A stretch of 48,454 nucleotides of DNA from the IMG/VR virus record IMGVR_UViG_3300025152_000001. One strand, given 5' to 3'. This document shows positions 2,734 through 46,060 of the stretch, in pieces. The notes below the pieces were generated by a model that worked only from the letters and a program-made list of their open reading frames with translations, ran no database searches and had not been told where the DNA came from. Numbering within the stretch: the stretch's first letter is position 1; every line of letters begins with the position of its first letter. This stretch comes from a virus. A program made the translations under genes and the position numbers.

Positions 2734-3101
2734 AATATCCTACAGCAAAACAGGTTGTAAACCTTATTGAGGGATTAACCTGCGAAAGAGAAAATCTAAG
2801 TATGGATTTAGTTTGGAATAGTGGGATAGAAATAGGTGGGAAAACAAGACTGATTCCCGTTTCAGAAGAGCAAAGAAAAGAGATAAATGATTTTATGAGT
2901 GATGTTTACCATTTTACCCATTTCTTTGGTGCTTGTGGTAGAAGAAATCACAAGTCAGATTTGCCTAGATTCTGGGAGAAAGCTAAACAACTTAAAAAAG
3001 ATGGGTTTTGTGATATTTGGAAAAGAGATGATTTTAGTTGGTATACTAAACTACAAAAAAGAATAAAAAAACACGAAAAGAAACAAAAGGTTAAACAATG
3101 A
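2730..3101 (+). CDS. hypothetical protein (123 aa) immediately upstream of the helicase
   Basis: ATGA overlap with the upstream gene. Basic C-terminal tail. No family recognised. Confidence 0.55.
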   Translation: MKYPTAKQVVNLIEGLTCERENLSMDLVWNSGIEIGGKTRLIPVSEEQRKEINDFMSDVYHFTHFFGACGRRNHKSDLPRFWEKAKQLKKDGFCDIWKRDDFSWYTKLQKRIKKHEKKQKVKQ

Positions 3102-4105
3102 CAATAAAGTCACTATCGGGTGAAGTGTTAAAGGACATACTATCTCGTTCTTCCACACCTGAATTTCCTATAGGATTAAGAGATGTTGATGATATTCTCT
3201 GGGGATTAAAGAGGTCTAAACTACACGCCATAGGTGGCAGAACCAGTATGGGAAAATCCGCAGAAATGTTCTTTATAGCAAACCATCTTGTTGGACTTAA
3301 CAAAAAGGTAGGGTTCCTTAACTTAGAAATGACAAACAAGGAAATTATAGAGAGGATGTTATGTCTTAATTGTAAAGTAAGCAATGAGGATATGATTAAA
3401 GGAAGGCTTACACCAGAGCAGAAATATATACTTGAAGAATATATTGGAACAATGCCGGAAGACCACGGTCTTGTTGTAGCAGATAGATTAGATTCCGACT
3501 GGGGGAACGTATCAAACATAAGACGTTTTCTAGATACAAACAAGGTTGATGTTTTATTTCTTGACTATATACAAATGATTCGAGCAAGAGATGACCAGCA
3601 AGAGAGAATACAGTTAGGACAATTTTCAGTAGACCTAGATAGAATAGCCAAAGAATATAATGTTGCTGTTGTTTATGGTTCACAGATAAACAGGGCGGGA
3701 GTTACAGAAGAAAGCCAAGGCATACCAAAACTACATCATTTTAAGGGTTCGGGTGTACTTGAGGAAAATGCCCACGCAGTAATAATAGTCCACTGGTACT
3801 GGAAGGCAATGATGAAAAAGAAAGACGGTACAGAGTACCATCCGAAAGAATATGCAATGTATGTAGCAAAAAATAGGGGTGGTAGAACAGGTCTTGCAAT
3901 AGTGAACTTTACACCAGAACATTACAATTTTGAAGATAGGGAAAAAACAGTATCAGAAACCATATGGGAGGGTAAAGATGCTAACCAAACACGACCTGCA
4001 AATGTTGACAAAGAACACGCAAACGACACTGGACATGATGACCCGAAATATAGACGAGTCGGTCAAAAGCAAGTTAGCATTGGAGAGGGACTTAGTGAAT
4101 TATAA
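3098..4105 (+). CDS. DnaB-family replicative helicase (RecA-like C-terminal domain only)
   Basis: 335 aa. Walker A GGRTSMGKSAEM, Walker B/DnaB motif VLFLDYIQMI, then SQINR and GSGVLEENAH. No N-terminal DnaB domain is evident. Confidence 0.8.
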   Translation: MTIKSLSGEVLKDILSRSSTPEFPIGLRDVDDILWGLKRSKLHAIGGRTSMGKSAEMFFIANHLVGLNKKVGFLNLEMTNKEIIERMLCLNCKVSNEDMIKGRLTPEQKYILEEYIGTMPEDHGLVVADRLDSDWGNVSNIRRFLDTNKVDVLFLDYIQMIRARDDQQERIQLGQFSVDLDRIAKEYNVAVVYGSQINRAGVTEESQGIPKLHHFKGSGVLEENAHAVIIVHWYWKAMMKKKDGTEYHPKEYAMYVAKNRGGRTGLAIVNFTPEHYNFEDREKTVSETIWEGKDANQTRPANVDKEHANDTGHDDPKYRRVGQKQVSIGEGLSEL

Positions 4106-4219: not shown

Positions 4220-4419
4220 GTATAGATAAAATATTTCTCTTGACAATTGCCGTAATATTTGGTATAATACATATACGGTTGATTGCGGGGGCGATAACAG
4301 GAATACTTGCGTGTTTGTTTTTACTGTTTTACCAAATGGGAATTGACACACTATACCTGATGTTTAATATGTTCGGGGTAGTGATAAAAATAGAAGGAGT
4401 AAAACAAGATGGAAAATAG
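4216..4419 (+). CDS. possible small 2-TM membrane protein (67 aa, GTG start)
   Basis: Hydrophobic product, but two promoter-like elements lie inside it, so coding status is uncertain. Confidence 0.3.
   Translation: MSIDKIFLLTIAVIFGIIHIRLIAGAITGILACLFLLFYQMGIDTLYLMFNMFGVVIKIEGVKQDGK
4240..4268 (+). promoter_or_regulatory. consensus sigma70/sigmaA promoter (TTGACA-N17-TATAAT, TGG extended -10)
   Basis: ttgaca 4240-4245, 17-nt spacer, tataat 4263-4268. Confidence 0.65.
4343..4370 (+). promoter_or_regulatory. second promoter-like element (TTGACA-N16-TAATAT)
   Basis: ttgaca 4343-4348, taatat 4365-4370, about 40 nt upstream of the ATG at 4409. Confidence 0.45.
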
Positions 4420-5050
4420 TGCAACAGGAATTCCTATAGGAAATTGGATTGGTGCGGATTGTGGTAGTTCTTCTGGAGTAGTTACTGGAAATACAACAGC
4501 AACAAACTATCATTGGGAAGCAATTAGACCATTAACACCATACGGTTTATCTATATCGTGTACACCAGAGGTGAAAGAATATAATCCAATAAAACCTAAA
4601 GGAGGAAAGAAAATGAAATCAACAAAACTAAAAGTGGGAGATAAGGTGAAAATGGATGGGACTACCGGGGAATATACGGTGATTAAACTTCAAAACGAAA
4701 GGCAGGTAGTGTTTAGTTCTGGTGTAGATGGAGCACTGGCATACCGTGCAGAAAAGAGTGAAAATGGTCTGTGGTTTTGCGGTGCTAGTGCAATAGTGAA
4801 GGTTGGCAATGCTATAAAGAAAGTTCCTAGCCTTCTAGTAAAAGGACACACACCCAGATTAGTAATAAAAGTGGGGTGTAAAGAGTTTGACGTTAAGGGG
4901 ATTAACAAATTAGTTAAAAGGTTGTTATCTATGGCTAAGGCATCTAAACAGGTAGTAGGTGGTCAGGCGGTGTTTAGTGGAGAAGGGTTTTATGTTGAAG
5001 ATATAGAAAACGCAATTAAGTGGTTGAAAGAAAACAAAATAACCTCATAG
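4409..5050 (+). CDS. hypothetical protein (213 aa; alternative start at 4613)
   Basis: GAAGGAG SD before 4409. An in-frame ATG at 4613 has an even stronger SD (AAAGGAGGAAAG), so a shorter product is possible. Confidence 0.55.
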   Translation: MENSATGIPIGNWIGADCGSSSGVVTGNTTATNYHWEAIRPLTPYGLSISCTPEVKEYNPIKPKGGKKMKSTKLKVGDKVKMDGTTGEYTVIKLQNERQVVFSSGVDGALAYRAEKSENGLWFCGASAIVKVGNAIKKVPSLLVKGHTPRLVIKVGCKEFDVKGINKLVKRLLSMAKASKQVVGGQAVFSGEGFYVEDIENAIKWLKENKITS

Positions 5051-5059
5051 GAGAATAAT

Positions 5060-5863
5060 ATGGCTTGGATTGAGAACATAATAGATAGGTCTATAATGGC
5101 TAAGGCAAAGGCGAATAAAAGAAGTGGTAAGTTTTCGTTTTCCAAACTTGGACACTGCTTACGACAAATTATGATGGAGGAACGCAAGTATGACGAGTTG
5201 TACCCTGATAAATTTATACCCAATACACCACAGCAAGAGAGGGTGTTTGCAGCTGGGTATTTATTTGAACGGTTTTGTGTTGACAACACCAAGGATATAA
5301 CCGTTGCTTCACAGATACCTTGCGAGTATCGGGGAATTAAGGGAACAGCAGATGTCGTGTTAGATGATAGTGGAAAGAACGTGTTGGGTGACTGGAAATC
5401 AGTTCATAGTGATAAGTTTGGATATTTAAGCAAAGAAGCAAAGCCAGACGAAAGTTATGCAATGCAGATTACCGGCTACTACTTATCTTTAAAGGATAAA
5501 TACAAACTAGAAGATAAGGGTTTGGTAATATATGTCGAGAAGAATAGTATTTTAATAAAAGAAATGGGATTTGAGTTTAAGGATTATATCGGGAAGGTTA
5601 ATGCAAAGATAGACCTTTATGAGAGGGCTTGTGCCGTTGACACGCTTCCTGATGGACTTCCTTTAAGTGAAGAAGGGAAAATACCGTGGCAGTGCTTTAG
5701 TAATGGTGCTAAGAATGGATGTAGGTTGTGGTGTTCGTATATACGGCACTGTGAGAAATACAATACCGAATATTTGAAGGCAATGGAAGAAGAAAAGAAA
5801 ATGAAAGCAGAGAAAGCAGAAAAGAAAGCGAAAGCAGATAAGAAAAAGGGAGGGTTAATATAA
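5060..5863 (+). CDS. Cas4-like / RecB-family PD-(D/E)XK exonuclease with probable Fe-S cysteines
   Basis: 267 aa. GTADVVLD, GDWKS (D-x-K) and QITGYY (QxxxY) motifs. One N-terminal Cys (GHCLRQ) plus C-terminal CRLWCSYIRHC, and a Lys-rich tail. Confidence 0.7.
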   Translation: MAWIENIIDRSIMAKAKANKRSGKFSFSKLGHCLRQIMMEERKYDELYPDKFIPNTPQQERVFAAGYLFERFCVDNTKDITVASQIPCEYRGIKGTADVVLDDSGKNVLGDWKSVHSDKFGYLSKEAKPDESYAMQITGYYLSLKDKYKLEDKGLVIYVEKNSILIKEMGFEFKDYIGKVNAKIDLYERACAVDTLPDGLPLSEEGKIPWQCFSNGAKNGCRLWCSYIRHCEKYNTEYLKAMEEEKKMKAEKAEKKAKADKKKGGLI

Positions 5864-6117: not shown

Positions 6118-6484
6118 AGAAACCACTGATTTAATACAGAAACTAGCAGATAAACTTGGAACCACAGCTGAACACCTATGGGGTGTGTTGCTTAAACAAG
6201 CCCCAATATCTGCAATAACCGAAGGTGTTTTAATGATAATATTATTCACCTCTTTATGCTCTTTCTGGATTTGGTATGGTTCGTGGTATAAGAAAGCATT
6301 GGCAAAAGAGATAAAAAAAGGGTATAGTTATGTTGACGCTGATAGTACAACACCTAAAATTGTTGGATTAACCCTTGCAACCCTTGTATTCATTCTGGTA
6401 TTTTTATTGTCAATAGGTGGGGTTATTGCAGGGCTAATGAACCCCGAATATTGGGCATTAATGCAGATAATCGGAGGTAGATAA
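6110..6484 (+). CDS. hypothetical membrane protein (124 aa)
   Basis: Two clear hydrophobic segments (GVLMIILFTSLCSFWIWYGSW and IVGLTLATLVFILVFLLSIGGVIAGL). Coupled start. Confidence 0.6.
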   Translation: MNKETTDLIQKLADKLGTTAEHLWGVLLKQAPISAITEGVLMIILFTSLCSFWIWYGSWYKKALAKEIKKGYSYVDADSTTPKIVGLTLATLVFILVFLLSIGGVIAGLMNPEYWALMQIIGGR

Positions 6485-7518: not shown

Positions 7519-7727
7519 TTATAACTAAGGTGATATGTAATAACGGTTATGGTTATGCCGTTGGTGAGTCGGTTTTAGACCCAATGAGTGGAAATAAAGA
7601 GATTGCAAGTATTGTAGAGCATAGAGCAAAAGGAGATGGAGATAAGTGGTACTATGATGTTATTTACACTGACGATTGTTTTACTAGACTATTTGATGTT
7701 ATAAAAGCAGAATACAGGGAGGTATAA
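7515..7727 (+). CDS. hypothetical protein (70 aa)
   Basis: ATGA coupling with the upstream ORF. GGAGG SD. Confidence 0.55.
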   Translation: MIITKVICNNGYGYAVGESVLDPMSGNKEIASIVEHRAKGDGDKWYYDVIYTDDCFTRLFDVIKAEYREV

Positions 7728-7933
7728 TGTTTAGTGGTTTTTGTGGTATAGAACCATATTTGATACAAGATAACTTTGTTTATTACACGGCAGAACCACC
7801 ACCAGAGTTCTGGGAATGGGTTGAGTACCAAGACAAGTTAAGACACCCGCTATTTATCCACGTAGGACATTTTGAAATTACCGTAAAAATAATAGGAGAT
7901 AAAATAAAATGGACGAACATAAGTCAATCTTAG
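7727..7933 (+). CDS. hypothetical protein (68 aa)
   Basis: TAATG coupling. GGGAGG SD. Confidence 0.5.
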   Translation: MFSGFCGIEPYLIQDNFVYYTAEPPPEFWEWVEYQDKLRHPLFIHVGHFEITVKIIGDKIKWTNISQS

Positions 7934-8187
7934 AAGAAAGTTTGTCGTTAGTTAATGGGGAAAGACAAGACAACTATGGTGACCCTGTTAAGTGTATGGA
8001 ACGAACTATGGCTATATTCTATGCTATATCTGGGATAAAGTTAGAAACAAGGCACGTACCACTGTTTAACATAGCACAGAAATTAGCAAGGGAATATAAT
8101 AAACCTAGCAGGGAAAATAAACTTGATATGTGCGGATACCTCCACATACAGGATTTAGTAGAACAAAAGGAGAAAACAAATGGCTAG
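7909..8187 (+). CDS. conserved phage protein, DUF6378-like (GERQDNYGDP motif)
   Basis: 92 aa. I recall the N-terminal ..NGERQDNYGDP.. motif from a phage domain of unknown or nucleotide-related function. This is memory-based, not searched. Confidence 0.45.
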   Translation: MDEHKSILEESLSLVNGERQDNYGDPVKCMERTMAIFYAISGIKLETRHVPLFNIAQKLAREYNKPSRENKLDMCGYLHIQDLVEQKEKTNG

Positions 8188-8524
8188 TTTAAATAAAGTG
8201 ATGTTGATAGGAAATCTGACGAAAGACCCTGAACTTAAAACTATAGGGGAAAGCAATAAAGTGTGTAGATTTGGTATGGCAATGAACAAGAGATACAAAA
8301 CGGAAAGCGGTGAAGAGAAAGAGGAAGTGTGTTTTTTGAGTGTTGATGTGTGGGGAAAACAGGGAGAACTTTGTTCTAAATATCTCAAGAAGGGAAGTCT
8401 AACATTTGTAGAGGGTAGACTGCAATCTAGGTCTTACGAGAAAGACGGGGTGAAGCACTTTGTTCTTGAGGTGGTGGCAGATAGGGTGCAGTTCCTTGAT
8501 AAAAAGGAGAAAGAAGGTGAATAA
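8180..8524 (+). CDS. ssb: single-stranded DNA-binding protein
   Basis: 114 aa. The canonical OB-fold SSB start MASLNKVMLIGNLTKDPEL, then ..FLSVDVWGKQGE..YLKKGSLTFVEGRLQSRSYE. Confidence 0.85.
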   Translation: MASLNKVMLIGNLTKDPELKTIGESNKVCRFGMAMNKRYKTESGEEKEEVCFLSVDVWGKQGELCSKYLKKGSLTFVEGRLQSRSYEKDGVKHFVLEVVADRVQFLDKKEKEGE

Positions 8525-8657
8525 GTTTATATTCCCTTGTGTCTTAATGTTTCTTAATATCTGTGCATCTATAGGGTATTTCTGGAACAAGGATATATGG
8601 ATGGGTTTTTATTGGATAACTGCATTTTTTTTAACGTTCATAATAACATTTAAATAG
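8517..8657 (+). CDS. possible small membrane protein (46 aa, GTG start)
   Basis: Hydrophobic product. The start choice within ORF 8460..8657 is uncertain. Confidence 0.3.
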   Translation: MNKFIFPCVLMFLNICASIGYFWNKDIWMGFYWITAFFLTFIITFK

Positions 8658-8666
8658 GGGGTAATA

Positions 8667-9656
8667 GTGAAAACAAAAGTGGAAATGGCTAGAGAATTGG
8701 TAAAGAAATATCCTTACGAACCATCTTTAACACTTGCCAAGATGTTGTATTCAGATAACAAGTTGTTGTTTAAAGATGCGGAACAAGCAAGAGATAGCAT
8801 AAGACAGGCAAGGGGTGTTGGTGGGGGTAAACACACAAAGAAAAAAGCCGTGCAGATACGAACAAAAGAGCAGATAGAAATATCCAGAGGGATAAAATCC
8901 ATAATACCAGATGAAACACCGTTTAAGGTTGAGAACCTGACCGGTGCTTATAAATGGCTTCTTCTTCCAGATATGCACATACCCTATTTTGACCTAAAAG
9001 CTATTGAGGTGGCGGTGGCATTTGGTAAGAAAGAAAAATGTGATGGGATAATCTACCCTGGAGATTTATCAGACTGCTATTCCCTGTCCACGTTTGACAA
9101 AGACCCTTCGCAGAGAGATTTTCTCGGGGAAATTGCAATGGTTAAGAAGATGATATATGAGATTAGTAGGATAATAAAACCTTCTACAACCATTTGGAAA
9201 ATGGGAAACCACGAACACCGTTTGAGTAGGTTCCTTATGCAGAAAGCACCGATATTGTTTAAACTACCCTCTTTATCATTCGAGAAGATATACGACCTAG
9301 AGCGGTTGAAGGTGAAGACAATACCGCACACTAGTTTGTTGAGATACCAGAAATTGACAATAGGTCACGGAGATGAGTTTGGCTCTGTATCTTCTGCATA
9401 TCCTGCAAGGGGAGTGTTCCTTCGGACAGGTGCTTGTACGTATGTCACTCACTGGCACCGTTCTTCCACTTACACCGAAACAGATTTAAACGGGGATATA
9501 AAGACCTGTTGGAGTAGTGGTTGTCTTTGCAATATGCACCCAGAGTATGCACCTGTCAACAAGTGGAATCACGGGTTTGGTATACTAGAAACAAAGGGTA
9601 AGTATTGGGAGATAAAGAATAAGAGTATTATAAAATCTAAAGTGTTTGAGGGATAA
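8667..9656 (+). CDS. calcineurin-like metallophosphoesterase
   Basis: 329 aa. LLLPDMHIPY (DxH), YPGDLSDCY (GDxxD), GNHEHR, GHGDE and THWHR motifs in canonical order. GTG start after GGGGG. Confidence 0.75.
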   Translation: MKTKVEMARELVKKYPYEPSLTLAKMLYSDNKLLFKDAEQARDSIRQARGVGGGKHTKKKAVQIRTKEQIEISRGIKSIIPDETPFKVENLTGAYKWLLLPDMHIPYFDLKAIEVAVAFGKKEKCDGIIYPGDLSDCYSLSTFDKDPSQRDFLGEIAMVKKMIYEISRIIKPSTTIWKMGNHEHRLSRFLMQKAPILFKLPSLSFEKIYDLERLKVKTIPHTSLLRYQKLTIGHGDEFGSVSSAYPARGVFLRTGACTYVTHWHRSSTYTETDLNGDIKTCWSSGCLCNMHPEYAPVNKWNHGFGILETKGKYWEIKNKSIIKSKVFEG

Positions 9657-12495: not shown

Positions 12496-12860
12496 AAAAA
12501 CTAGAAAATAAATATCTCAAGAAATCTACCAAAGAGAAACTAACACAGAAATTGAGAAAGTTGTACGATATAAAAGTCCAAACAAAAACGCCAGATTATT
12601 CTAAGATTAGGTTCTGGGGTAAGATGGTTAAGGTCAATGCTATATTTTGTCCTGATTGCCATACTATGATATTCTCTCTCCACCGCCACGATTACAATGA
12701 ATGTAAGTGTGGTAAATATATGATAGACGGTGGATTTGATTATCTTAGATGTTCAGTGAACAGTATTGCCTGTACCATTGGACTTCCGGTAGCACTATTC
12801 AAGGAAATGGGTCTGGACTATCCAGAAAAGGCGGTATATGATAATCGTAGTTCACGGTGA
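12492..12860 (+). CDS. hypothetical zinc-binding protein (122 aa)
   Basis: ATGA coupling. CPDCH...HRHDYNECKCG motif. Confidence 0.55.
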   Translation: MKKLENKYLKKSTKEKLTQKLRKLYDIKVQTKTPDYSKIRFWGKMVKVNAIFCPDCHTMIFSLHRHDYNECKCGKYMIDGGFDYLRCSVNSIACTIGLPVALFKEMGLDYPEKAVYDNRSSR

Positions 12861-13215
12861 TTGTGTTGGTAAGAAAACAAGCCAAGTGTTTGTGTTTCGG
12901 TTGAGAAGGCTTGTACCAAATGCTAGGTTTATACAATATGCTAAAGATTTCGGTAGACAGATTACAGGGGAACACAAGGGGATGTTCTTAAAGGAAGATA
13001 AATTACAGATACATATTGACTGGTTTACATCTAATAGAATAACAATAAGAGATGGGGTTAATATGGAACAATCTATCTGGGATTTGCTTCAAGATTATGA
13101 AGTGATACACAATGATTCACAGTTCTATAAATGGTCTGGGACAAAGAACCTAGATAAATTAAATCCAAGAGTAGAGATAAAAATAGAAAAGTTTTCTCTT
13201 GACATTTCTAAATAA
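12838..13215 (+). CDS. hypothetical protein (125 aa)
   Basis: ORF overlapping the upstream end by 23 nt. Protein-like composition. Confidence 0.5.
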   Translation: MIIVVHGDCVGKKTSQVFVFRLRRLVPNARFIQYAKDFGRQITGEHKGMFLKEDKLQIHIDWFTSNRITIRDGVNMEQSIWDLLQDYEVIHNDSQFYKWSGTKNLDKLNPRVEIKIEKFSLDISK

Positions 13216-24817: not shown

Positions 24818-27800
24818 TTAGATAGTTCTTTCCTTAACATTATATTTTGTTAGTGCACGATAAAGAGTTAAGTCTACAGCATCATCTGTGTAGAACTTGT
24901 ATTTTATATCCCTTCCATTAGCATAGCCATTATATAAATATCTCTGTTCACCATCTCCCTGCGTCAAATCAATAGAACCAAGGTCTGTAAATATTCCAGA
25001 ATTGTTTATATCATAGGATATGTCTAGTGTTCCCACTGCTGATTGCGGTTCAAAGAATACATTGGTTTCCTTAAACCATTTATCCTGTCCCTTGTTTATC
25101 ACCCCAAATCTGCCAGTGACCCAATAAGAAACAATATCTTCTATATGGTCTACATCACCGTAATTAAATTTTAACCCAGAGAATAAACTAAATATACTCC
25201 CATCTACAGAACTACCAAAATAAGGGTTCTGGATGAACGTAGATAAAGAACCAACGGGGTAATCCTTAATGTTCTGAAACTGCCACATCTTATCTATGCA
25301 CATTCCAGTGTTTGCATATTTATCTCCCTCTATCTGTCCAAATAGAAAATAGCGGTTGTTATATACCATACTAGCCATTTGAGTAGTAGGGATTGTTGAA
25401 CCAGAAGAAGTAATCCAGTTTACAACAACAGAATCAATAAAAGGTATTTCATTGTATTTATTAGTGTTGAGTTCGGCTCTCCACTGAATCCATCTGTTTC
25501 CGTCTGTCTCTGGTATCTTTTGCCCCGGAGTTGCAACGTGCCAATTGGCTGTGGATAAATCTCCAGATGATGTTGCCGACCTTGTAAAGTAGTTAATAGT
25601 TTGGTTAGCAAACGTGCTGGATGCTTCAAATGTATACCATTTCCCAGATGCAGTCCCAATATCGTTTGTTTGTGATATAAATGTTCCGCCACAAGGTACA
25701 ATCATCTTTAACACTGGTGCGGTAGTATAAGGAGTTAATGACGTTAATGTTGCATACACCCTAAAATATTCCAGCATTGTTATAGATGTGACATCTGTCC
25801 ATTTAAAATTATATACATCTGTTGTGGTTGGTAAGGGATATAATGTGGCGGTAGTCCAATCTGCTAAATCAGTTGCCGCTGTTCTTATAGATAACGAAAG
25901 AGTGCTACCACTAGGTATGGTCATATTTCCAACGAAATTTCCCAACACATCTGGGGAACTTGTCACCCTTCTTATGGTCGGAGATTCCCAAGTTACTGCT
26001 GTGGGTGAGTAGGCATTAGTGTTGCCAGTTAAGGTTATATTATCTACTCCACCGTACACTCTATAGTTTATATAACCAGCATCTGGAGTAGTGTCTTCTC
26101 CGTAAAATCTTGCAGAAATATTTATAGTTCCAGAAGCATAATTAAATGTGTCACTAGTCATTGTTCTGGAATATGGGACTTCCAACCCAGAAGATGGAAC
26201 AACTCCGGTTTTGTATGCCGTGTCTAATAATGCAACTATTTTTAAAGATTGACCATAATACGAAGAGCCGGGATTGAATGAAAACGTCTGCCAAGAGCCC
26301 GTTGTAGTAGCAACTGAATACAGTAAAACATTTGCCGATGTGTAAACTCTAACATATAAAACAGCATCATATTGCTGAGTTGGATAACTATTTCTATTCC
26401 GTGTTAAATCTATCACCCCTAGTGCAAATTTAGAACCAGATAGTGGAGTCCATTGGTCTACATACCACAAGGTGGTAGTACCAGTTTCGGCAGTCCACTC
26501 TCCACCGTTCCAATTAGTAATACCAGATTCAAAGTCTGGGTTTGCAATTACAGTGTTACTATTTTTTATAGTTATAGCATCTGTGACGGTGTCAACATCT
26601 GCTTGTGCTGATAATGTTCCAGTTTGCCAATCTGCCTTACTTTGCCACACCCTCTGTTTTAATGCACCAGAATGGTCGTCCCCAGTATAATCAAAAAGAT
26701 TAGTACCAGTTGTTCCAGCTGCGAAATCTTCTTCTATAGCCTGAATCCAACTACCATAATTAACCAAAGACTGTTGAAATTTCTCGTAAGTGGGTTTTAC
26801 TGGGTCAGATATTCTTATCGGAGAAAAACTCTCATCCATACGATAAAGACCGTCTTTACCAGAGAATAATATACTGTTATCCTTTACTTGCACAGACCGA
26901 CCTAATGTACAACCTATTCCAAACTCTCTAGGCATCCAGTCAAAATTAGAACCCATTTCTCCAGTGAGGACATAGAATATCCTATTTAGAAATATTACAG
27001 TGCGTTCTCCAAATGCTATACCCCTTGTTATGTAATCTCCAGTATCAAGAGCCAAATCTTTTGCAAATGTGTTACTAAACCAACCTGCTTCTGTTGGCAG
27101 TTTTGTTTCGTCAGTGTAATAAACCGTAGCTAGATTTCCCTCGGCATATCCTATCATTAGTGTAGCACCTTGATGATTCCAAATATGTCTTCCACGAGGA
27201 ACCCAGAAAGCCGCACCGTGAGCCGCATTAAATGTTATTGTTTGTTCTGCGTCTGTATAAGCCATAACCCAGTCTGAACCGTTAGTGAAATAACAATCAC
27301 CATCATAAGTACAAAATTCGTGTTCATATGAAGAATTAAATCCACTGGCTACCGGGGTAAACGTTATCCCATCTGTTGAAGCCCATACCGTTTGACCATC
27401 AGAAGCCATTAACTTTCTTGAACCATCTGTCTGGAAATATTCAGCCATAGTCCTAACTGGCTTTAAAGCCCTAATATCATCTATGAATATAGTATGAGCA
27501 ATATTTTGGTCTCTATTGGAATTAAGAGCAACAATGGTTATTGCCGTGTTTGACGAAGGGTCTACCATTGGAACTGTGACATAAGTCCATTCATAAGCAG
27601 TAATGGGAACATCTATTGACATATCTTCTTCTAGTCCAACAGCATCACTTAATTGTACACTTAAATCCCCTTTCAATAAGTCAATGCTAGAATATATCCA
27701 AAGTCCAACTCTCTTGAACTCTGATATATCTATTGCTGTTATATCTTTATGTGCTATAACTCCAGTGGTGAAGGTAGCAGTTATAACGTTTTTAGAATCA

Positions 27801-38932: not shown

Positions 38933-40426
38933 CTAGTACAAACCAAATTTTCCGCTTCTATATGGAGTATCTCCTGAAATAAATTCTGGGATATGTTCAA
39001 CCTTTTGTCGCATTAAATATCTCCAAGCATCCATAAAATGGTCACGTTTCTTCTTTTGCTTTTGTCTTGGGTCAATATCTCTTTTGTTTGAACTGTCGTC
39101 CCAGACCGTGTGTTCCACTTGGTATATAAACTCTTTTAAATCATCAAAGACAAAGAACTTGTGAATATCTATTTCTTTTCCAGTTTCTCTGTCTGTTCCG
39201 ACTTCGCCTTTTAGAGCCATAGAACAACAATGATAACCACTTTCTAAATCCTTAATAGCATTTCTTACTGGTATACCTTGGTCTCTAAATAATTGAGCTG
39301 TTGTTTTCCCAGATGTTCTTTCCTGTGCATTTGCCGAAGTATCAATTACCGTGTATAGAATGTTCATTCCTTCGGATAATCGAAGTATAACTTTCGCCGC
39401 TTCCGCTATTGTTGCTGTTGGCTTAGAAACATATTCTTTAACTAAAAAACTGTCATTATCTGGACTTACCGCCAACCACAAACAGTAAATTGATGTAGCT
39501 GGGTGAGGGTCTAAAGCCCGCACAACAGTCCATTTCTCATCTATATATTTCGTATTAGGTTTTACTAAATGTACCTTTCTATTCCACAACGGGTACAACA
39601 CTCCGCTCTTACTTGTGAACTCTCCAAACAATCTTGACCTTTCGTCAGGGGTTCCCTTGAAAGACCGTTCTAAATTCTTAACCACTTCCGCAGAAGAATA
39701 TTCGTTATCGTAAATCGAAGCCGTTATCACTTCCACGTCATCTGCATCTGGGTCTTGGTTCATCCAAGGCTCATACAATCTTTCATACATAAATGACTTA
39801 CCCAAAAGAGGGGTCATAGTAAATATTATGTCTAGTGGTTCGTTAGCGTGTTGCCTTGCTAAACACTCATCATAAATATCTTCTGATGGTTCTTCATCGA
39901 ACGCAATTAATCTTTTTCTAGTGCCTTGGAATTTGATTCTGCCACTGTCAACTGACTTAAATCCTACGGTAGAACCATTCTTCATCTCTAGTATTCGGTC
40001 TGCTTCGTTCCATTTCTTTATTTCGTCTAATGGGAATAATTCCTTAATTTTCTTTTCTGCTACTCCCTTACTAGTGGGATAATCTACTGATACAACCCAA
40101 ACATCACAAGGTATTTTAATATCGTTTCTATAGGGGTGTTTACCACTTACAAAATAGTAAACTTCTGCAGCCATGCTAAAAGTTTTCCCACAGCCGTTCC
40201 CGCCAAAGAAAACCCTTTTACGCTTTTGGCTCTTGTGGAACTGCAACTGCTTCTGGTGCGGGACATAGTAATCTATCTTCCTTGTTGTCTTGTAATCCTC
40301 CAACGTCAGAAGGTCTTGGTATATCTGCTTCAACTCGTCCTTCGACAGTGTTTTTAGGACGTCCATTATTTCTAAGTTCGTTAAATTTAGCAGTGAGGAG
40401 CGAGAATACACGTTCGATAATGTCAT
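38933..40426 (-). CDS. terL: terminase large subunit
   Basis: 497 aa. Walker A FFGGNGCGKTF, Walker B LIAFDEEP, nuclease-domain motifs ALDPHP, IDTSANA and DHFMDAWRYL. Confidence 0.9.
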   Translation of the reverse strand: MTLSNVYSRSSLLNLTNLEIMDVLKTLSKDELKQIYQDLLTLEDYKTTRKIDYYVPHQKQLQFHKSQKRKRVFFGGNGCGKTFSMAAEVYYFVSGKHPYRNDIKIPCDVWVVSVDYPTSKGVAEKKIKELFPLDEIKKWNEADRILEMKNGSTVGFKSVDSGRIKFQGTRKRLIAFDEEPSEDIYDECLARQHANEPLDIIFTMTPLLGKSFMYERLYEPWMNQDPDADDVEVITASIYDNEYSSAEVVKNLERSFKGTPDERSRLFGEFTSKSGVLYPLWNRKVHLVKPNTKYIDEKWTVVRALDPHPATSIYCLWLAVSPDNDSFLVKEYVSKPTATIAEAAKVILRLSEGMNILYTVIDTSANAQERTSGKTTAQLFRDQGIPVRNAIKDLESGYHCCSMALKGEVGTDRETGKEIDIHKFFVFDDLKEFIYQVEHTVWDDSSNKRDIDPRQKQKKKRDHFMDAWRYLMRQKVEHIPEFISGDTPYRSGKFGLY

Positions 40427-40964: not shown

Positions 40965-40970
40965 ATATAT

Positions 40971-40999
40971 ATTATACACATTTTTTCGCACTTTGTCAA
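40971..40999 (-). promoter_or_regulatory. perfect consensus sigma70/sigmaA promoter for the minus (structural) arm
   Basis: Minus strand TTGACA (40999-40994), N17, TATAAT (40976-40971). The ATG at 40964 sits at the predicted +1. Confidence 0.7.
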
Positions 41000-41104
41000 T
41001 AGATAACAGAACGGTTTTCAAAACGGCTCTGTTGAGCTTATTCTATCAGTGTTTTGTTTTTGTGTTTTTCGTGATTTTGGGTGGAACGCCTATAAGCAGA
41101 AAAA

Positions 41105-41825
41105 TTATCCACAGTCTAATCCACAGATTTTATGTGGTATTATTTTCGATAGTTCCCTATTATGGAATTACCGCAAATTTTACTACAGGAAAAATGGTTG
41201 AAATTTATCTATATATAGAAGCTGTATTAAATAATGCACACGATATACCACTGATACATAATGAGTTAAGCCTGAAATGACCTAAAAAGTGTTGCCACAA
41301 TCGATTCTGGCGAGTTAAAAACGTGTTATAGTACTCTGATACCAAAACTTAAAAAAAACCCACTAGAACGAAACGTGGTGCGATTTAGAGGCATTGTGGT
41401 TGCTGGTCACGACCATCATTTTCACTTAACCAGATAAATCTCATATTTATTGTTTTCCTGTTTTTCAGAAATCCTTTAAAAAGGGGAAAGGAAGGGAGTA
41501 AGGAAAAAGGGGACTATAGGGGATAAAGGTTAAAAGAGGGTTGGTATGGGGTTAAAGTTCTTAAAAGCTTTTATATTAAAAGCACTTTATAAATATAACT
41601 ACTACTTTCTAAGGTAACAAGCCCGAATTTGACAGGAAAACTGGTAGAGAAACTGAACCGCAATCCACAACCTAATCCACAGATTTAGAAATATTATGTT
41701 AACTAAAATTGCTTATGTTTATTGATAACTGGTTTTCCATAATAGTCAACCTGTGGATAACTATTGTCAAATTCATTAAACACATTATAACATAAGACGA
41801 TTTAAAATCTATAAATTGTGGATAA
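41105..41825. promoter_or_regulatory. DnaA-box cluster (candidate replication origin / DnaA-regulated control region)
   Basis: Perfect TTATCCACA at 41105-41113. Perfect TGTGGATAA at 41752-41760 and 41817-41825. One-mismatch TAATCCACA at 41117-41125 and 41673-41681. CAATCCACA at 41661-41669. Confidence 0.6.
41478..41556 (+). repeat. purine-only-like G-run tract
   Basis: aaaaaggggaaaggaagggagtaaggaaaaaggggactataggggataaaggttaaaagagggttggtatgggg is almost pyrimidine-free and has six runs of GGG or GGGG. Confidence 0.7.
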
Positions 41826-42421
41826 TTATATCCCCGTTTTCTTACTGTGCAAAACATCCCTGACCTGTAAGGACTTACATAATAAACTTAACACTTCCAC
41901 CAAATGGTACCGTTTTCCTGCAGCTTCGGACAAACCCTCGGACACTAAGTAATCATAATTTCGCTACCCTTCTATACCAACTATCTTACACTTTCTTTGA
42001 TAATTACCCCATTTTTGATAACTTGATTATAAAATCAAATTTTACAGCCAGTTATTAATAAAAGCCCTTATCCTATCAGCACTTATCGGACAATTTGGAA
42101 TCAGCTGTGGGGGTGGGGAGTCATATTACACTCTCGGGTGGCATTGGGCTTCTCGGACAAGTGCAATAGCATAGTAGCACATAGCATAAGAATTGTATAC
42201 ATAAGCTATACGTTATAATGCTTTTGCTTATACCCTTGTTTGTTTATTGCTGGATATACCCGGGTAGTAAGTGTTGTGTCGCACGCTAGTACAAACAGCA
42301 TAATATGCCTGATACATAAGCACTTAGCAAAAACAGTATATTGCATTATTGCCTGTTATTGATGGTATTGGTATATATAAAACGGCTTTAACACCTACTA
42401 ACTGCACCTATACATACATCA

Positions 42422-42540
42422 TTGCTTTGTTGCTTTGTTCTTTTTTGTTCTTATATTGTAATATATACTTACTTTATATGCTTTATTATAAACTACTTCA
42501 GTTATTAGATAGTTTCATTTGAAACCTTTTACTTTCTGTA
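42422..42540. promoter_or_regulatory. very AT-rich tract with tandem TTGCTTTG units (DNA-unwinding-element candidate)
   Basis: ttgctttg ttgctttg ttctttttt gttctt, followed by about 100 nt of roughly four-fifths A+T, inside the non-coding region. Confidence 0.35.
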
Positions 42541-43096
42541 GTATTATCACATTGGATTGTAATAAGATATAGTTTAAGCCCCTTTTCCGACTATCTCATA
42601 CTATACCCTTTAACCCCTTTTTGAGTTTATTCCTTTTGCCTTTACCGGTTACTATTGCATACTATATACACTAGCTAAAAGCCAAAGCTAAAGACAAAAA
42701 AGCTATAAAGATTAGTATTGTTAGTATATAGGTAAGTTTTTAGGGTTTTAACCTCGAAATATTCTTTTCGTTTACACTTCTCAAAACCTTCTCACGTTGC
42801 CTTCTGTTGAGTTTAAACACCACTAACCATAGTTATATGCCATGGCATTATTGCCTATGCTTAAAATCGATTGTAGTGATATTATACCCTATATGGTACG
42901 ATATACCACTTACTACCTGTTATTGCTGGTTAGTATCACCTTTTATATATCTATTGTACCTTTTAGGGTATAGTCCTGTTTTATTATTCCTGTAACTTTT
43001 TTCTATTTATGGCGTAATTGCCGTAATTAAAATAATTATTTTATGCTATTATGTCCCTGATACATAAGCATTTACAAACTATCTAAAAAATAACTA

Positions 43097-43124
43097 TTGA
43101 CAAATTAAATATCTATGTTATACT
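43097..43124 (+). promoter_or_regulatory. sigma70/sigmaA promoter for the plus arm (TTGACA-N16-TATACT, TGT extended -10)
   Basis: ttgaca 43097-43102, tatact 43119-43124, 42 nt upstream of the ATG at 43166 with a GGAGGG SD. Confidence 0.65.
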
Positions 43125-43165
43125 ATTAATAGAGCAGATTAGACAGCTCAACGGAGGGAAAGAAA

Positions 43166-43357
43166 ATGGAAAGATACCAGCATATAAGGGAAAAACTAGA
43201 ACCACTGAAAGTGTATACATATAGAGAAATAGTAAACATAATATCTCCAACACAATCAACAACAGCGGAATATATAATGGACAATATGAGGGCGTGCGGT
43301 ATGCTGTCTTATGCTTCTGACAGCACGGGGCATACGGGATTTAAATTAGTACAATAG
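43166..43357 (+). CDS. small protein (63 aa), possible winged-helix DNA-binding regulator
   Basis: First gene of the plus arm. Helix-turn-helix-like segment YTYREIVNIISPTQSTTAEYIMDNMRACGML. The assignment is tentative. Confidence 0.5.
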   Translation: MERYQHIREKLEPLKVYTYREIVNIISPTQSTTAEYIMDNMRACGMLSYASDSTGHTGFKLVQ

Positions 43358-45042: not shown

Positions 45043-45166
45043 TGATATATAGTTGGCGGTACTTTGTCAACAAAAGGCAACAAAGGGCTTTAAATGAATT
45101 AAAATGGTGCTTATTATTCACGATTACAGCCGGGGTTATGGCAATGATTTTAAGGGGGTATTAAAT

Positions 45167-46060
45167 ATGTGCAGATTTATTTCATTCTTTCACAAACCAG
45201 ATGCAGACGGTAAGCCAGAGATTGCAGTATGGGATTTAAACTCTCACGGGGAAACAGAGGAACATTTGAAACTAAATACTAAGTTGTGGCAAGAAGCTCA
45301 TTACGAGCCAAATGGAAACCTTGAATTGAGATATAATGATAATTTTAAGTTAGATAAAAAAGAATATGAGGAAATATTTAAAAATAGATTTGTCAATTTT
45401 TCTTACTTTCTAAACCATTGTTTGAAACACTGGAATAACAGCGGCTATCTCGACCTTAGAGGTTGCGACTTGAAGGGAATAACCCTGCCGACTACAATCG
45501 GTGGCTATCTCGACCTTAGAGGTTGCGACCTGAAGGGCATAACCCTGCCAACCACTATTGATGGCTCTCTCTACCTTAGCGGTTGCGACTTAAAGGGCAT
45601 AACCCTGCCGACTACAATCGGTGGCTTTCTCTACCTTAGCGGTTGCGACTTGAAGGGCATAACCCTGCCGACTACAATCGGTGGCTCTCTCTACCTTAGC
45701 GGTTGCGACTTGAAGGGCATAACCCTGCCGACTACAATCGGTGGCTATCTCGACCTTAGAGGTTGCGACCTGAAGGGCATAACCCTGCCAACCACTATTG
45801 ATGGCTCTCTCTACCTTAGCGGTTGCGACTTGAAGGGCATAACCCTGCCAACCACTATTGATGGCTTTCTCTACCTTAGCGGTTGCGACTTGAAGGGCAT
45901 AACCCTGCCAACCACTATTGATGGCTCTCTCTACCTTAGCGGTTGCGACTTGAAGGGCATAACCCTGCCGACTACAATCGGTGGCTATCTCGACCTTAGC
46001 GGTTGCGACTTAAAGGGCTTAACTATACCAAAAAGATTTAAAAATAAGATTATAAAGTAA
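45167..46060 (+). CDS. LRR-like tandem-repeat protein, paralog A (about 92-aa N-terminal domain plus ten 20-aa units)
   Basis: ATG 45167 after AGGGGG gives the same MCRFISFFHKPDADGKPEIAVWDLNSHGETEEHLKLN.. start as paralog B. The 20-aa units G-x-L-x-L-x-G-C-D-L-K-G-I-T-L-P-T-T-I-(G/D) fit short bacterial-type LRRs. Confidence 0.8.
   Translation: MCRFISFFHKPDADGKPEIAVWDLNSHGETEEHLKLNTKLWQEAHYEPNGNLELRYNDNFKLDKKEYEEIFKNRFVNFSYFLNHCLKHWNNSGYLDLRGCDLKGITLPTTIGGYLDLRGCDLKGITLPTTIDGSLYLSGCDLKGITLPTTIGGFLYLSGCDLKGITLPTTIGGSLYLSGCDLKGITLPTTIGGYLDLRGCDLKGITLPTTIDGSLYLSGCDLKGITLPTTIDGFLYLSGCDLKGITLPTTIDGSLYLSGCDLKGITLPTTIGGYLDLSGCDLKGLTIPKRFKNKIIK
45443..46042 (+). repeat. ten in-frame 60-bp tandem repeats
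   Basis: Period exactly 60 nt. Units 2 and 6 are identical. Units 5 and 9 are identical to each other and to unit 1 of paralog B. The last unit diverges after about 35 nt. Confidence 0.9.

Follow-up and report, generated by a model that had tools for sequence, protein, structure and literature searches.

Where does an uncultured, lytic-looking phage that encodes no recognizable initiator, polymerase, or primase begin to copy its genome? The question is raised by IMG/VR virus record IMGVR_UViG_3300025152_000001, a stretch of 48,454 nucleotides (nt) that was analyzed at its full length (the window). In it, a non-coding gap of 2.1 kb (41000–43166) separates two divergent gene arms, and six DnaA boxes lie within 720 bp of this gap (41105–41825). 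As judged from the sequence, these boxes form a real and conserved cluster, which is almost certainly a functional DnaA-type binding array. We tentatively propose that the left 0.8 kb of the gap is a DnaA-recruiting array that acts as the host-DnaA-dependent origin of the first (theta) round of replication, possibly helped by local transcription.

Clustering of DnaA Boxes

Three of the six boxes are perfect copies of the consensus TTATCCACA, and the three near-boxes differ from it by one or two mismatches. Boxes 1–4 form two tandem pairs, each with 3 bp between its members, and boxes 5 and 6 are perfect, inverted, and lie 65 bp from one another:

41105–41125, plus strand: tandem pair 1, consisting of box 1 (41105, perfect TTATCCACA), the 3-bp gap GTC, and box 2 (41117, TAATCCACA, one mismatch)
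41661–41681, plus strand: tandem pair 2, consisting of box 3 (41661, CAATCCACA, two mismatches), the 3-bp gap ACC, and box 4 (41673, TAATCCACA, one mismatch)
41752–41760, minus strand: box 5, perfect TTATCCACA
41817–41825, minus strand: box 6, perfect TTATCCACA

A preliminary description of this DNA had placed the perfect boxes and the near-boxes at exactly these positions. The two pairs are 92% identical to each other over 24 nt. A count over both strands of the window yielded one perfect box outside the gap, at 25550 on the minus strand, which is the fourth and last in 48.4 kb. The number expected per genome is 0.59 according to base composition and 0.93 according to a second-order Markov model, slightly higher than the 0.4 estimated in the preliminary description. 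None of 400 simulated second-order Markov genomes had three boxes within 720 bp (Poisson probability ~3e-5). Similarly, half of the 12 ATCCACA cores of the genome fall inside the same 720 bp (~5e-8 by chance). When one mismatch is allowed, boxes are weakly enriched genome-wide (26 observed vs. 17.6 expected); the signal therefore lies in their clustering and not in their total count.

Conservation of the Array in Related Phages

The strongest evidence is the conservation of the array. We compared the gap with the contigs of relatives and other matching contigs, designated L001, L010, L011, L013, L014, L015, L020, L021, L023, L024, L032, and L036. L001 is an IMG/VR contig whose terminase is 91–94% identical to that of the window and whose gap aligns at 88% identity in its left 1.3 kb and at 76% in its right part. 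Its six boxes and their flanks are all unchanged, and pair 1 and a purine/G-rich block located between the two pairs are 100% identical. L001 also carries a 460-bp insertion at ~42290 (window 42283–42294; L001 4922–5381) and several smaller indels beyond it. Large changes are tolerated in the right half of the gap.

In L014, with a terminase 81% identical, the gap can be aligned in islands only (68–78% identity) and the order of the elements is the same. The site of pair 1, next to the leftward promoter (P_left), is occupied by the near-box ATATCCACA twice, with a start-to-start distance of 22 nt. It is followed by TATATATAGAAG, the G-rich block, two perfect rightward boxes with a 22-nt spacing at the site of pair 2, and two perfect leftward boxes 64 nt apart. 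In L013 (terminase 71% identical), perfect TTATCCACA occurs twice at the pair 1 site, again next to P_left and 22 nt from start to start. It precedes TATATATAGAAG, a TGATACATA element, GGGGTCACGACCCC followed by TTTTTTT, and the G-rich block, inside which the contig stops. The paired boxes are therefore 13 bp apart in these two relatives, versus 3 bp (12 nt from start to start) in the window. Boxes 5 and 6 are 65 nt apart in both the window and L001, versus 64 nt apart in L014. The DNA around the boxes of L014 and L013 is 68–78% identical or cannot be aligned, and the order and orientation of the boxes are kept. What does not vary is the ATCCACA core, bordered by A-rich sequence on its 5′ side and T-rich sequence on its 3′ side; the first two positions of the box do vary. 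Both the 15-nt context of box 5, CTGTGGATAACTATT, and ATTGTGGATAATTAT at box 6 are invariant in the window, L001, and L014.

All the perfect boxes of these contigs are located in the gap (three of three in L001, four of four in L014, and two of two in L013). We found none outside the gap in the relatives' contigs examined, nor in the 15-kb replication arm of the close relative L023/L024. The array is far from chance and confined to the gap, and diverged relatives keep its position and orientation; it is therefore under selection as a DnaA-type binding array. A pattern scan of viral contigs returned no contig beyond one already collected, and a metagenome scan with the terminase alignment returned one locus, which is unrelated. 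A genome scan gave one contig of a Clostridia metagenome-assembled genome, with a terminase 31% identical and no boxes. Relatives with 35–36% terminase identity have a different layout.

Organization of the Gap

The gap is a phage non-coding control region, flanked by two outward-facing consensus sigma-70 promoters. On its left, the plausible coding part of the last minus-arm open reading frame (ORF) stops near 40967; on its right, the first plus-arm ORF starts at 43166 and is preceded by GGAGGG. The preliminary description had seen no credible ORF in these 2.1 kb, and this was borne out. The gap contains no long ORF under the standard code, nor with TGA, TAG, or TAA read through. None of its small ORFs (≥25 amino acids [aa]) is intact with a ribosome-binding site in L001 and L014. 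We detected no tRNA or tmRNA, and no Rfam family reached the gathering threshold over the whole window, the gap giving sub-threshold noise only. Sliding-window folding gave z values below −3 at 41260 (minus strand), 41700 (plus), and 42860 (plus), with no overall structure signal in the gap (mean z −0.3 to −0.4). In addition to the boxes, we identified the following features:

40971–40999, minus strand: P_left, sigma-70 consensus TTGACA-17-TATAAT at the left edge of the gap, driving the terminase/structural arm, with a T-rich stretch next to it; one of the four perfect (12 of 12) promoters of the genome
41126–41221: A+T tract (71%) on the 3′ side of pair 1, ending in TATATATAGAAG (41210–41221)
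41244–41268, plus strand: copy 1 of a ~25-nt element, ATATnCC-TGATACATAA-GnACTTA
41396–41425, plus strand: hairpin holding GGTCACGACC, then a T-run; terminator-like on the plus strand
41474–41560, plus strand: purine/G-rich block of 87 nt (77% purine, 38% G, 3 C), containing the invariant GGGACTATAGGG
41682–41751: spacer A, a candidate unwinding region of 70 bp, 76% A+T, located 3′ of pair 2 and also 3′ of box 5
41761–41816: spacer B, 56 bp, 80% A+T, between co-oriented perfect boxes; best-conserved candidate unwinding region
41764–41791, plus strand: promoter-like TTGTCA-16-TATAAC inside spacer B
41853 to 41825, minus strand: promoter-like TTTGCA-17-TATAAT, whose −10 hexamer abuts box 6
41926–42159, plus strand: TCGGACA four times (41926, 41938, 42086, and 42153), out of five copies in the genome
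42023–42038: palindrome TTGATTATAAAATCAA (TTGATT...AATCAA)
42103–42121: G-run GCTGTGGGGGTGGGGAG
42302–42326, plus strand: copy 2 of the TGATACATAA element
42327–43049: A+T filler, indel-rich and poorly conserved (~76% identical to L001)
43050–43074, plus strand: copy 3 of the TGATACATAA element, upstream of the −35 hexamer of P_right (which starts at 43097)
43097–43124, plus strand: P_right, TTGACA-16-TATACT, promoter of the plus (early/replication) arm

Each box has DNA of 71–80% A+T on its 3′ side, taking TTATCCACA as the reference orientation, and pair 2 and box 5 face one another across spacer A. Forty-nucleotide windows at 41555–41574, 41681–41690, and 41774–41792 rank in the lowest 1% of the genome for stability. 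Within the gap itself, stability is lowest at 42433–42520, inside the A+T filler, which also contains an inverted repeat (42883–42903/42952–42972).

Several of these features are shared with the relatives. The −35 and −10 elements of P_left are kept in L001, L013, and L014. TATATATAGAAG occurs once in the window and is invariant in the window and these three contigs. L014 has GGTCACGACC at a different position and one copy of the TGATACATAA element inverted; at the two aligned positions it shows TTGGACA, and it retains the G-run and both arms of the palindrome. The TCGGACA copies, the palindrome, and the G-run are possible binding sites for a phage protein. The purine/G-rich block, kept in L013 and L014, is one of four strong purine or pyrimidine runs in the genome. 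An inverted relation between this block and a C-rich stretch at 42563–42647 was dropped as weak (score 48 vs. 34.7 ± 4.7). In L032, a SPAdes contig with a coverage of 2, unrelated DNA (positions 1–522) is joined to the phage at window position 41565, just past the block. This junction is probably a chimera, the alternative being a recombination or integration junction.

With up to one mismatch, the TGATACATAA element is found in the gap only (41251, 42309, and 43057), always on the plus strand. It is the sole gap feature common to all five lineages (the window, L001, L013, L014, and L015). L015 retains a G-rich repeat block and one copy of the element, which precedes the rightward promoter of that contig by ~110 nt. 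When reverse-complemented (CTTATGTATCA), the element resembles the promoter motif tAATGTATAtA of the phiEco32 gp36 sigma factor (PMC4281155). The element precedes no late gene, and no sigma factor gene was found among the window proteins searched.

Is the Array a Replication Origin?

The window represents a complete phage genome assembled as a circle: its first 51 bases recur at its end. Plus-strand ORFs extend from 43166 across the assembly junction to 15378, and minus-strand ORFs from about 41000 (to 41021) down to 15240. All genes thus point away from the gap and converge at 15.4 kb, as previously described. The following genes were assigned in the plus arm:

3098–4105: DnaB_C helicase
5060–5863: Cas4-like nuclease
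8180–8524: SSB
12838–13215: RusA-like resolvase
elsewhere in the plus arm: HNH nuclease, metallophosphoesterase, RNA ligase, and many orphans

Searches of nearly all plus-arm ORFs of at least 50 aa against Pfam and PHROGs revealed no recognizable initiator, polymerase, or primase. The plus-arm ORFs scanned contain no Rep, O-like, DnaD-like, or DnaA-like domain. The helicase is therefore present without these proteins, in agreement with the preliminary description, and their absence fits a dependence on host DnaA.

From the boxes, their non-random distribution and conservation, the adjacent low-stability DNA, and the lack of recognizable phage proteins of these kinds, we infer that DnaA binds and unwinds this DNA, that a helicase is loaded, and where the first fork starts. 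Host DnaA-ATP would bind the six boxes, and a DnaA oligomer would nucleate on the closely spaced tandem pairs. The oligomer would then extend into the 76–80% A+T spacers 3′ of the boxes (41682–41751 and 41761–41816) and open them. A hexameric helicase, either the DnaB-like protein of the phage or that of the host, would be loaded there, and host primase and DNA polymerase III would copy the circle bidirectionally. Later rounds would probably proceed through the recombination set of the phage (Cas4-like nuclease, SSB, and RusA). Transcription from the promoter-like sites over boxes 5 and 6, together with the G-rich block, may aid opening or priming, as in ColE1 and c2-type origins.

Besides the clustering of consensus boxes, other traits of bacterial chromosomal origins are found in the array. 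Boxes 1 and 2 point the same way across a 3-bp gap, and the upstream one is nearer to the consensus; boxes 3 and 4 are likewise co-oriented with a 3-bp gap. Bacterial origins most commonly have a tandem pair whose boxes are separated by 3 bp or less, the upstream box being the better one (PMC8287927). Another trait is the A+T-rich DNA on the 3′ side of the boxes, represented here by the two spacers. In Escherichia coli oriC, this is the side of the unwinding element. Among viruses, plasmavirus L2 replicates from intergenic origins that each have a DnaA box (PMC12662186).

Several observations weigh against an origin at the boxes or are neutral. The minima of the cumulative skew lie in the gap but at P_right (43058 for AT and 43113 for GC), at a distance of 1.2 kb from the boxes, and the curves run level through the gap, boxes included. 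Skew is not independent evidence here: all genes run the way the proposed forks would, and the direction of transcription confounds it. We read DnaA-trios by hand as runs of at least three trios (NAN on the strand opposite TTATCCACA) starting at most 16 bp from a box (PMC8287927). One run of four trios starts 8 bp past box 2 in the window, which has about even odds of arising by chance in DNA of 70% A+T. No run was found next to boxes 4, 5, or 6, nor in L013 or L014, and hence no conserved trio element. The length of spacer A is not conserved (70 bp in the window vs. 16 bp in L014). Since promoter-like hexamers overlap boxes 5 and 6, these boxes could be operators. Phage T5 displays the same box-pair grammar in a region other than its origin. 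L015 (terminase 53% identical) has the same divergent layout with a 760-nt gap devoid of boxes; the array is therefore under selection within a sub-lineage without being present throughout the family. Since no function could be assigned to about two thirds of the early ORFs, a phage initiator or a box-binding phage protein could hide among these orphans. The earlier designation of the region as a candidate oriC-like origin accordingly stands in part: a conserved and non-random array, A+T-rich DNA, and the lack of a recognizable phage initiator, polymerase, or primase speak for it, the skew gives it no independent support, and the absence of conserved trios and the box-free gap of L015 weaken it.

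Other Possible Functions of the Array

The origin and the other functions considered here are not mutually exclusive. Host DnaA might act as a transcription factor that gates the promoters of the gap and the leftward late-arm promoter, tying an early/late switch or a non-coding transcript to the DnaA-ATP state of the host. Box 5 abuts the −35 hexamer of the plus-strand TTGTCA-16-TATAAC site, and box 6 lies ~20 nt downstream of its start while abutting the −10 hexamer of the minus-strand TTTGCA-17-TATAAT site. L001 retains the TATAA(C/A) and TATAAT hexamers, L014 retains them in part, and pair 1 is upstream of P_left in all relatives (L001, L013, and L014). We nevertheless regard promoter control as an improbable main function. 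The distance from pair 1 to the −35 hexamer of P_left varies (~105 bp in the window, 75 in L013, and 40 in L014), unlike the fixed geometry of an activator or repressor, and P_right is 1.27 kb from the nearest box. The internal promoter-like sites match at 9–10 of 12 positions, and their number, 17 versus 12.8 ± 3.6 in shuffled sequences, is not significant. Moreover, six paired boxes exceed the usual need of an operator. A phage protein, either DnaA domain-IV-like or unrelated, might also be the main protein to bind the boxes, as an initiator or regulator that acts by itself or competes with host DnaA. HTVC010P-type podophages have a divergent early/late layout and no polymerase, and most encode a DnaA DNA-binding domain (PMC8477408). 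The phage described here shares their layout and lack of polymerase, and its portal weakly matches such a phage. The conserved box flanks (AAAAG...A/G-TTTT) reach beyond the classical 9-mer, and most early ORFs are orphans. Against such a protein, which we consider quite unlikely, no Bac_DnaA_C or other initiator domain was detected in the plus-arm ORFs scanned, with E values up to 0.1. The simplest reason for three diverged lineages to match the cellular consensus perfectly is that the cellular protein binds there.

The gap might span or adjoin the ends of a linear virion genome as a T5-like terminal element, in which boxes, repeats, and G-rich tract serve entry, end processing, or packaging. 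DNA entry would then involve pausing or membrane anchoring through DnaA. The T5 injection-stop region and pre-early gap share with our gap the 12-nt pair spacing, direct repeats, and a purine/G-rich tract, and the gap sits just upstream of the terminase genes. The contigs L010 (ENA ERZ27254848) and L011 (Logan SRR3989315) both stop at 42569, and L036, from the same ENA sample, starts at 42577. The 7 nt left out, TAGTTTA, are the right half of an imperfect palindrome, TAAGATA|TAGTTTA. L020 and L021, which represent a distant relative (terminase 36% identical) and differ in length and source, both end, at their position 1, exactly 183 nt upstream of the terminase gene; this shared end may be a physical genome end beside the packaging genes in that lineage. 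The break at 42569/42577 may mark a physical end of the genome or reflect missing coverage in a single set of reads: these contig ends come from fragmentary assemblies, perhaps of the same reads, and eight other assemblies span 42569–42577 with identical sequence. As a cohesive end, a 7-nt A+T-rich overhang would also serve poorly. What the T5 boxes do is a hypothesis as well; the gap has no homology to T5, and no A1/A2-like genes were seen. T5 has its own replication machinery, whereas the window phage has no recognizable one and needs a host-driven start somewhere. Taken together, these observations make a terminal element as doubtful as promoter control. Alternatively, multiplying phage genomes could act as a sink that titrates host DnaA, blocking chromosome rounds or derepressing genes under DnaA control, such as that of ribonucleotide reductase, from which the phage would profit. 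Chromosomal titration loci look like clusters of high-affinity boxes, which the array may be said to resemble, and the array is conserved yet absent from L015, as expected for an accessory function. Titration requires neither the conserved order, orientation, and 64–65-nt spacing nor the adjoining A+T tracts, and it would be a by-product of any other function. We give it little credence as the selected role, as little as a dedicated phage binding protein.

Gene Content and Position of the Phage

The minus arm encodes the large terminase, SU10-type portal and adaptor, capsid, tail, and lysis proteins. The terminase is at most ~30% identical to those of known phages, and the portal has a single weak match, to a pelagiphage of the HTVC010P kind. 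The gap DNA has no blastn match in 50,697 phage records and no match in a plasmid collection; the 1246-aa protein of the window is likewise unmatched in these phage records. The phage is far from any cultured phage. Identical or near-identical contigs are present in several groundwater-type metagenome assemblies.

The four perfect TTGACA-17-TATAAT promoters of the genome are at 403, 4240, and 13199 on the plus strand and 40999 on the minus strand. Together with GGAGG ribosome sites, these consensus promoters point to a host with canonical sigma-70/sigma-A recognition, and TTATCCACA is the usual DnaA box in hosts with canonical machinery. As a perfect consensus promoter starts the structural (late-looking) arm, this arm may not need a phage activator. 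The window has no GATC site, versus ~118 expected under a maximal-order Markov model, which leaves no room for Dam/SeqA-style control of the putative origin. Other 4-bp palindromes are also rare (GCGC 0, CGCG 1, GGCC 2, and CATG 21 vs. 125 expected). Such strong avoidance is as expected under heavy restriction pressure.

Among the early orphans, a 213-aa protein (4409–5050) is encoded directly upstream of the Cas4-like nuclease and is 57% identical in L023/L024, versus 90–99% for its neighbors. Its gene position suggests a candidate single-strand annealing protein; it matched no family. This protein and a 118-aa orphan have almost no homologues, as is the case for the orphans adjoining the helicase. 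Sequence searches of the PDB with three orphan proteins gave no match, and a single-sequence structure model of the 118-aa orphan was unusable (predicted local distance difference test score [pLDDT] of 43).

Several insertions and repeats distinguish these genomes. In L001, ~1 kb of extra DNA (7705–8769) interrupts the large terminase gene (window ~39950–39955), after which the terminase match resumes; an intron, an intein, or the insertion of a homing endonuclease may account for it. The metallophosphoesterase gene of L023 (8959–10866) and L024 (7602–9527), corresponding to window 8667–9656, is about twice as long and shows a faint LAGLIDADG match, which suggests an intein or a homing-endonuclease insertion. 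This relative also has a radical-SAM gene absent from the window and lacks the RNA ligase. In the window, a 60-nt (20-aa) tandem repeat of 9.7 copies (45443–46023) lies within an LRR/pentapeptide-like ORF (45104–46060), whose product varies in length among otherwise identical assemblies (318, 238, 218, and 178 aa). Many contigs break at the assembly junction because this repeat recurs there (48328–48454/1–157).

Implications

If host DnaA alone starts replication at the array, a virulent phage dispenses with all initiation and synthesis proteins and offers its host a copy of the host's own origin grammar. This would have consequences for host range, which would include any host whose DnaA reads TTATCCACA, and for competition with chromosome initiation. 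It would also help to predict origins in the many metagenomic phages without replication genes, and provide a tractable comparison for the T5 box pairs, whose function has been debated since 1987. If the boxes serve DNA entry or timing, this phage would be a second, independent lytic phage using DnaA outside replication. With six boxes, a fixed order, and a 64–65-nt spacing, the element is well defined and testable. It is rather unlikely, though less so than any of the alternative functions above, that a lineage of lytic phages without initiator, polymerase, and primase starts at a chromosome-style origin by host DnaA alone, its genome behaving as a mini-chromosome. The grammar shared with the non-coding region of T5, which has long lacked an explanation, would in that case suggest a general DnaA-hijacking module in lytic phages that are not related.

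Comparison with Known Systems

The array resembles bacterial oriC by its consensus TTATCCACA boxes, its tandem 3-bp pair with the better box upstream, and the low-stability A+T DNA on the 3′ side. It differs by the lack of a conserved DnaA-trio run, of dnaA/dnaN linkage, and of GATC, and by its location in a phage between two promoters. Theta origins of plasmids and prophages also combine boxes, A+T DNA, and iterons, for which the four TCGGACA copies and the three TGATACATAA elements are possible counterparts. P1 oriR, pSC101, F, and RK2 are theta origins with auxiliary DnaA boxes. Iteron origins adjoin the gene of a Rep initiator that binds the iterons, whereas no such gene is recognizable here, and the TCGGACA and TGATACATAA repeats are scattered over 0.2–1.8 kb without forming a regular array. 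In ColE1/pBR322, a G-rich tract can stabilize an RNA–DNA hybrid and a DnaA box can load DnaB on the displaced strand. By analogy, the G-rich tract of the gap could stabilize such a hybrid. Unlike in ColE1, no strong promoter was found reading into the G-rich block, which is preceded by the terminator-like hairpin, and the folding scan of the gap gave no RNA I/RNA II-like structure signal.

Among lytic phages, the c2-type lactococcal phages offer a similar layout. They are strictly lytic, their origin lies in a non-coding gap between divergent early and late blocks, and a plasmid carrying it replicates with host proteins only (PMC7150918). As in the window, the non-coding region of these Ceduovirus phages separates the two divergent blocks (NC_001706, 6635–7245), and it contains G/C-runs. 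The c2 origin is thought to act via a non-coding transcript from an early promoter. It measures 611 bp and has no DnaA box even with one mismatch, in contrast to the six boxes of our 2.1-kb gap. The c2, bIL67, and 923 origin types show no sequence relation to the gap (no blastn match among the 50,697 phage records). As the c2 origin is without DnaA box, the gap is not a c2-type origin by sequence or content.

A parallel to the boxes themselves is found in T5, where box pairs with a 3-bp gap, conserved in 25 T5-like phages, are located in a large non-coding region with the injection-stop signal, whereas the origins map elsewhere (10.1101/866236). In the T5 genome (AY543070), we located these pairs at 9437/9449 and 9498/9510, and boxes with degenerate partners at 6121 and 6194, the last two occupying a 480-bp gap that divergent promoters flank. 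Six GTGCAAATCCGACA direct repeats accompany them, along with a purine/G-rich tract at the end of the terminal repeat. T5 and the lytic-looking phage of the window share a large untranslated region, co-oriented box pairs with a 12-nt start-to-start spacing, direct repeats (TCGGACA in the window), and a G-rich block. They differ in that the T5 region belongs to a 10-kb terminal repeat and that T5 has its own replication enzymes, whereas the window phage is without recognizable polymerase or primase. We detected no homology between them: the gap has no DNA match to T5, the 1246-aa ORF has no match, and none of the terminase matches listed is T5-like. It has been hypothesized that membrane-bound DnaA stops the entry of T5 DNA (10.1101/866236). 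The likeness to T5 cuts both ways: the box pairs are a recurring device of lytic phages that is not an origin in the one case studied, yet T5 brings its own enzymes. The preliminary description considered a host-DnaA-driven, chromosome-style origin unusual for a lytic phage. This was overstated, as the host-only origin of c2-type phages and the box pairs of T5 precede it. A c2-type, host-only layout and the box grammar of oriC and T5 are known parts, here assembled in a new phage lineage, and the array is less unprecedented than first claimed.

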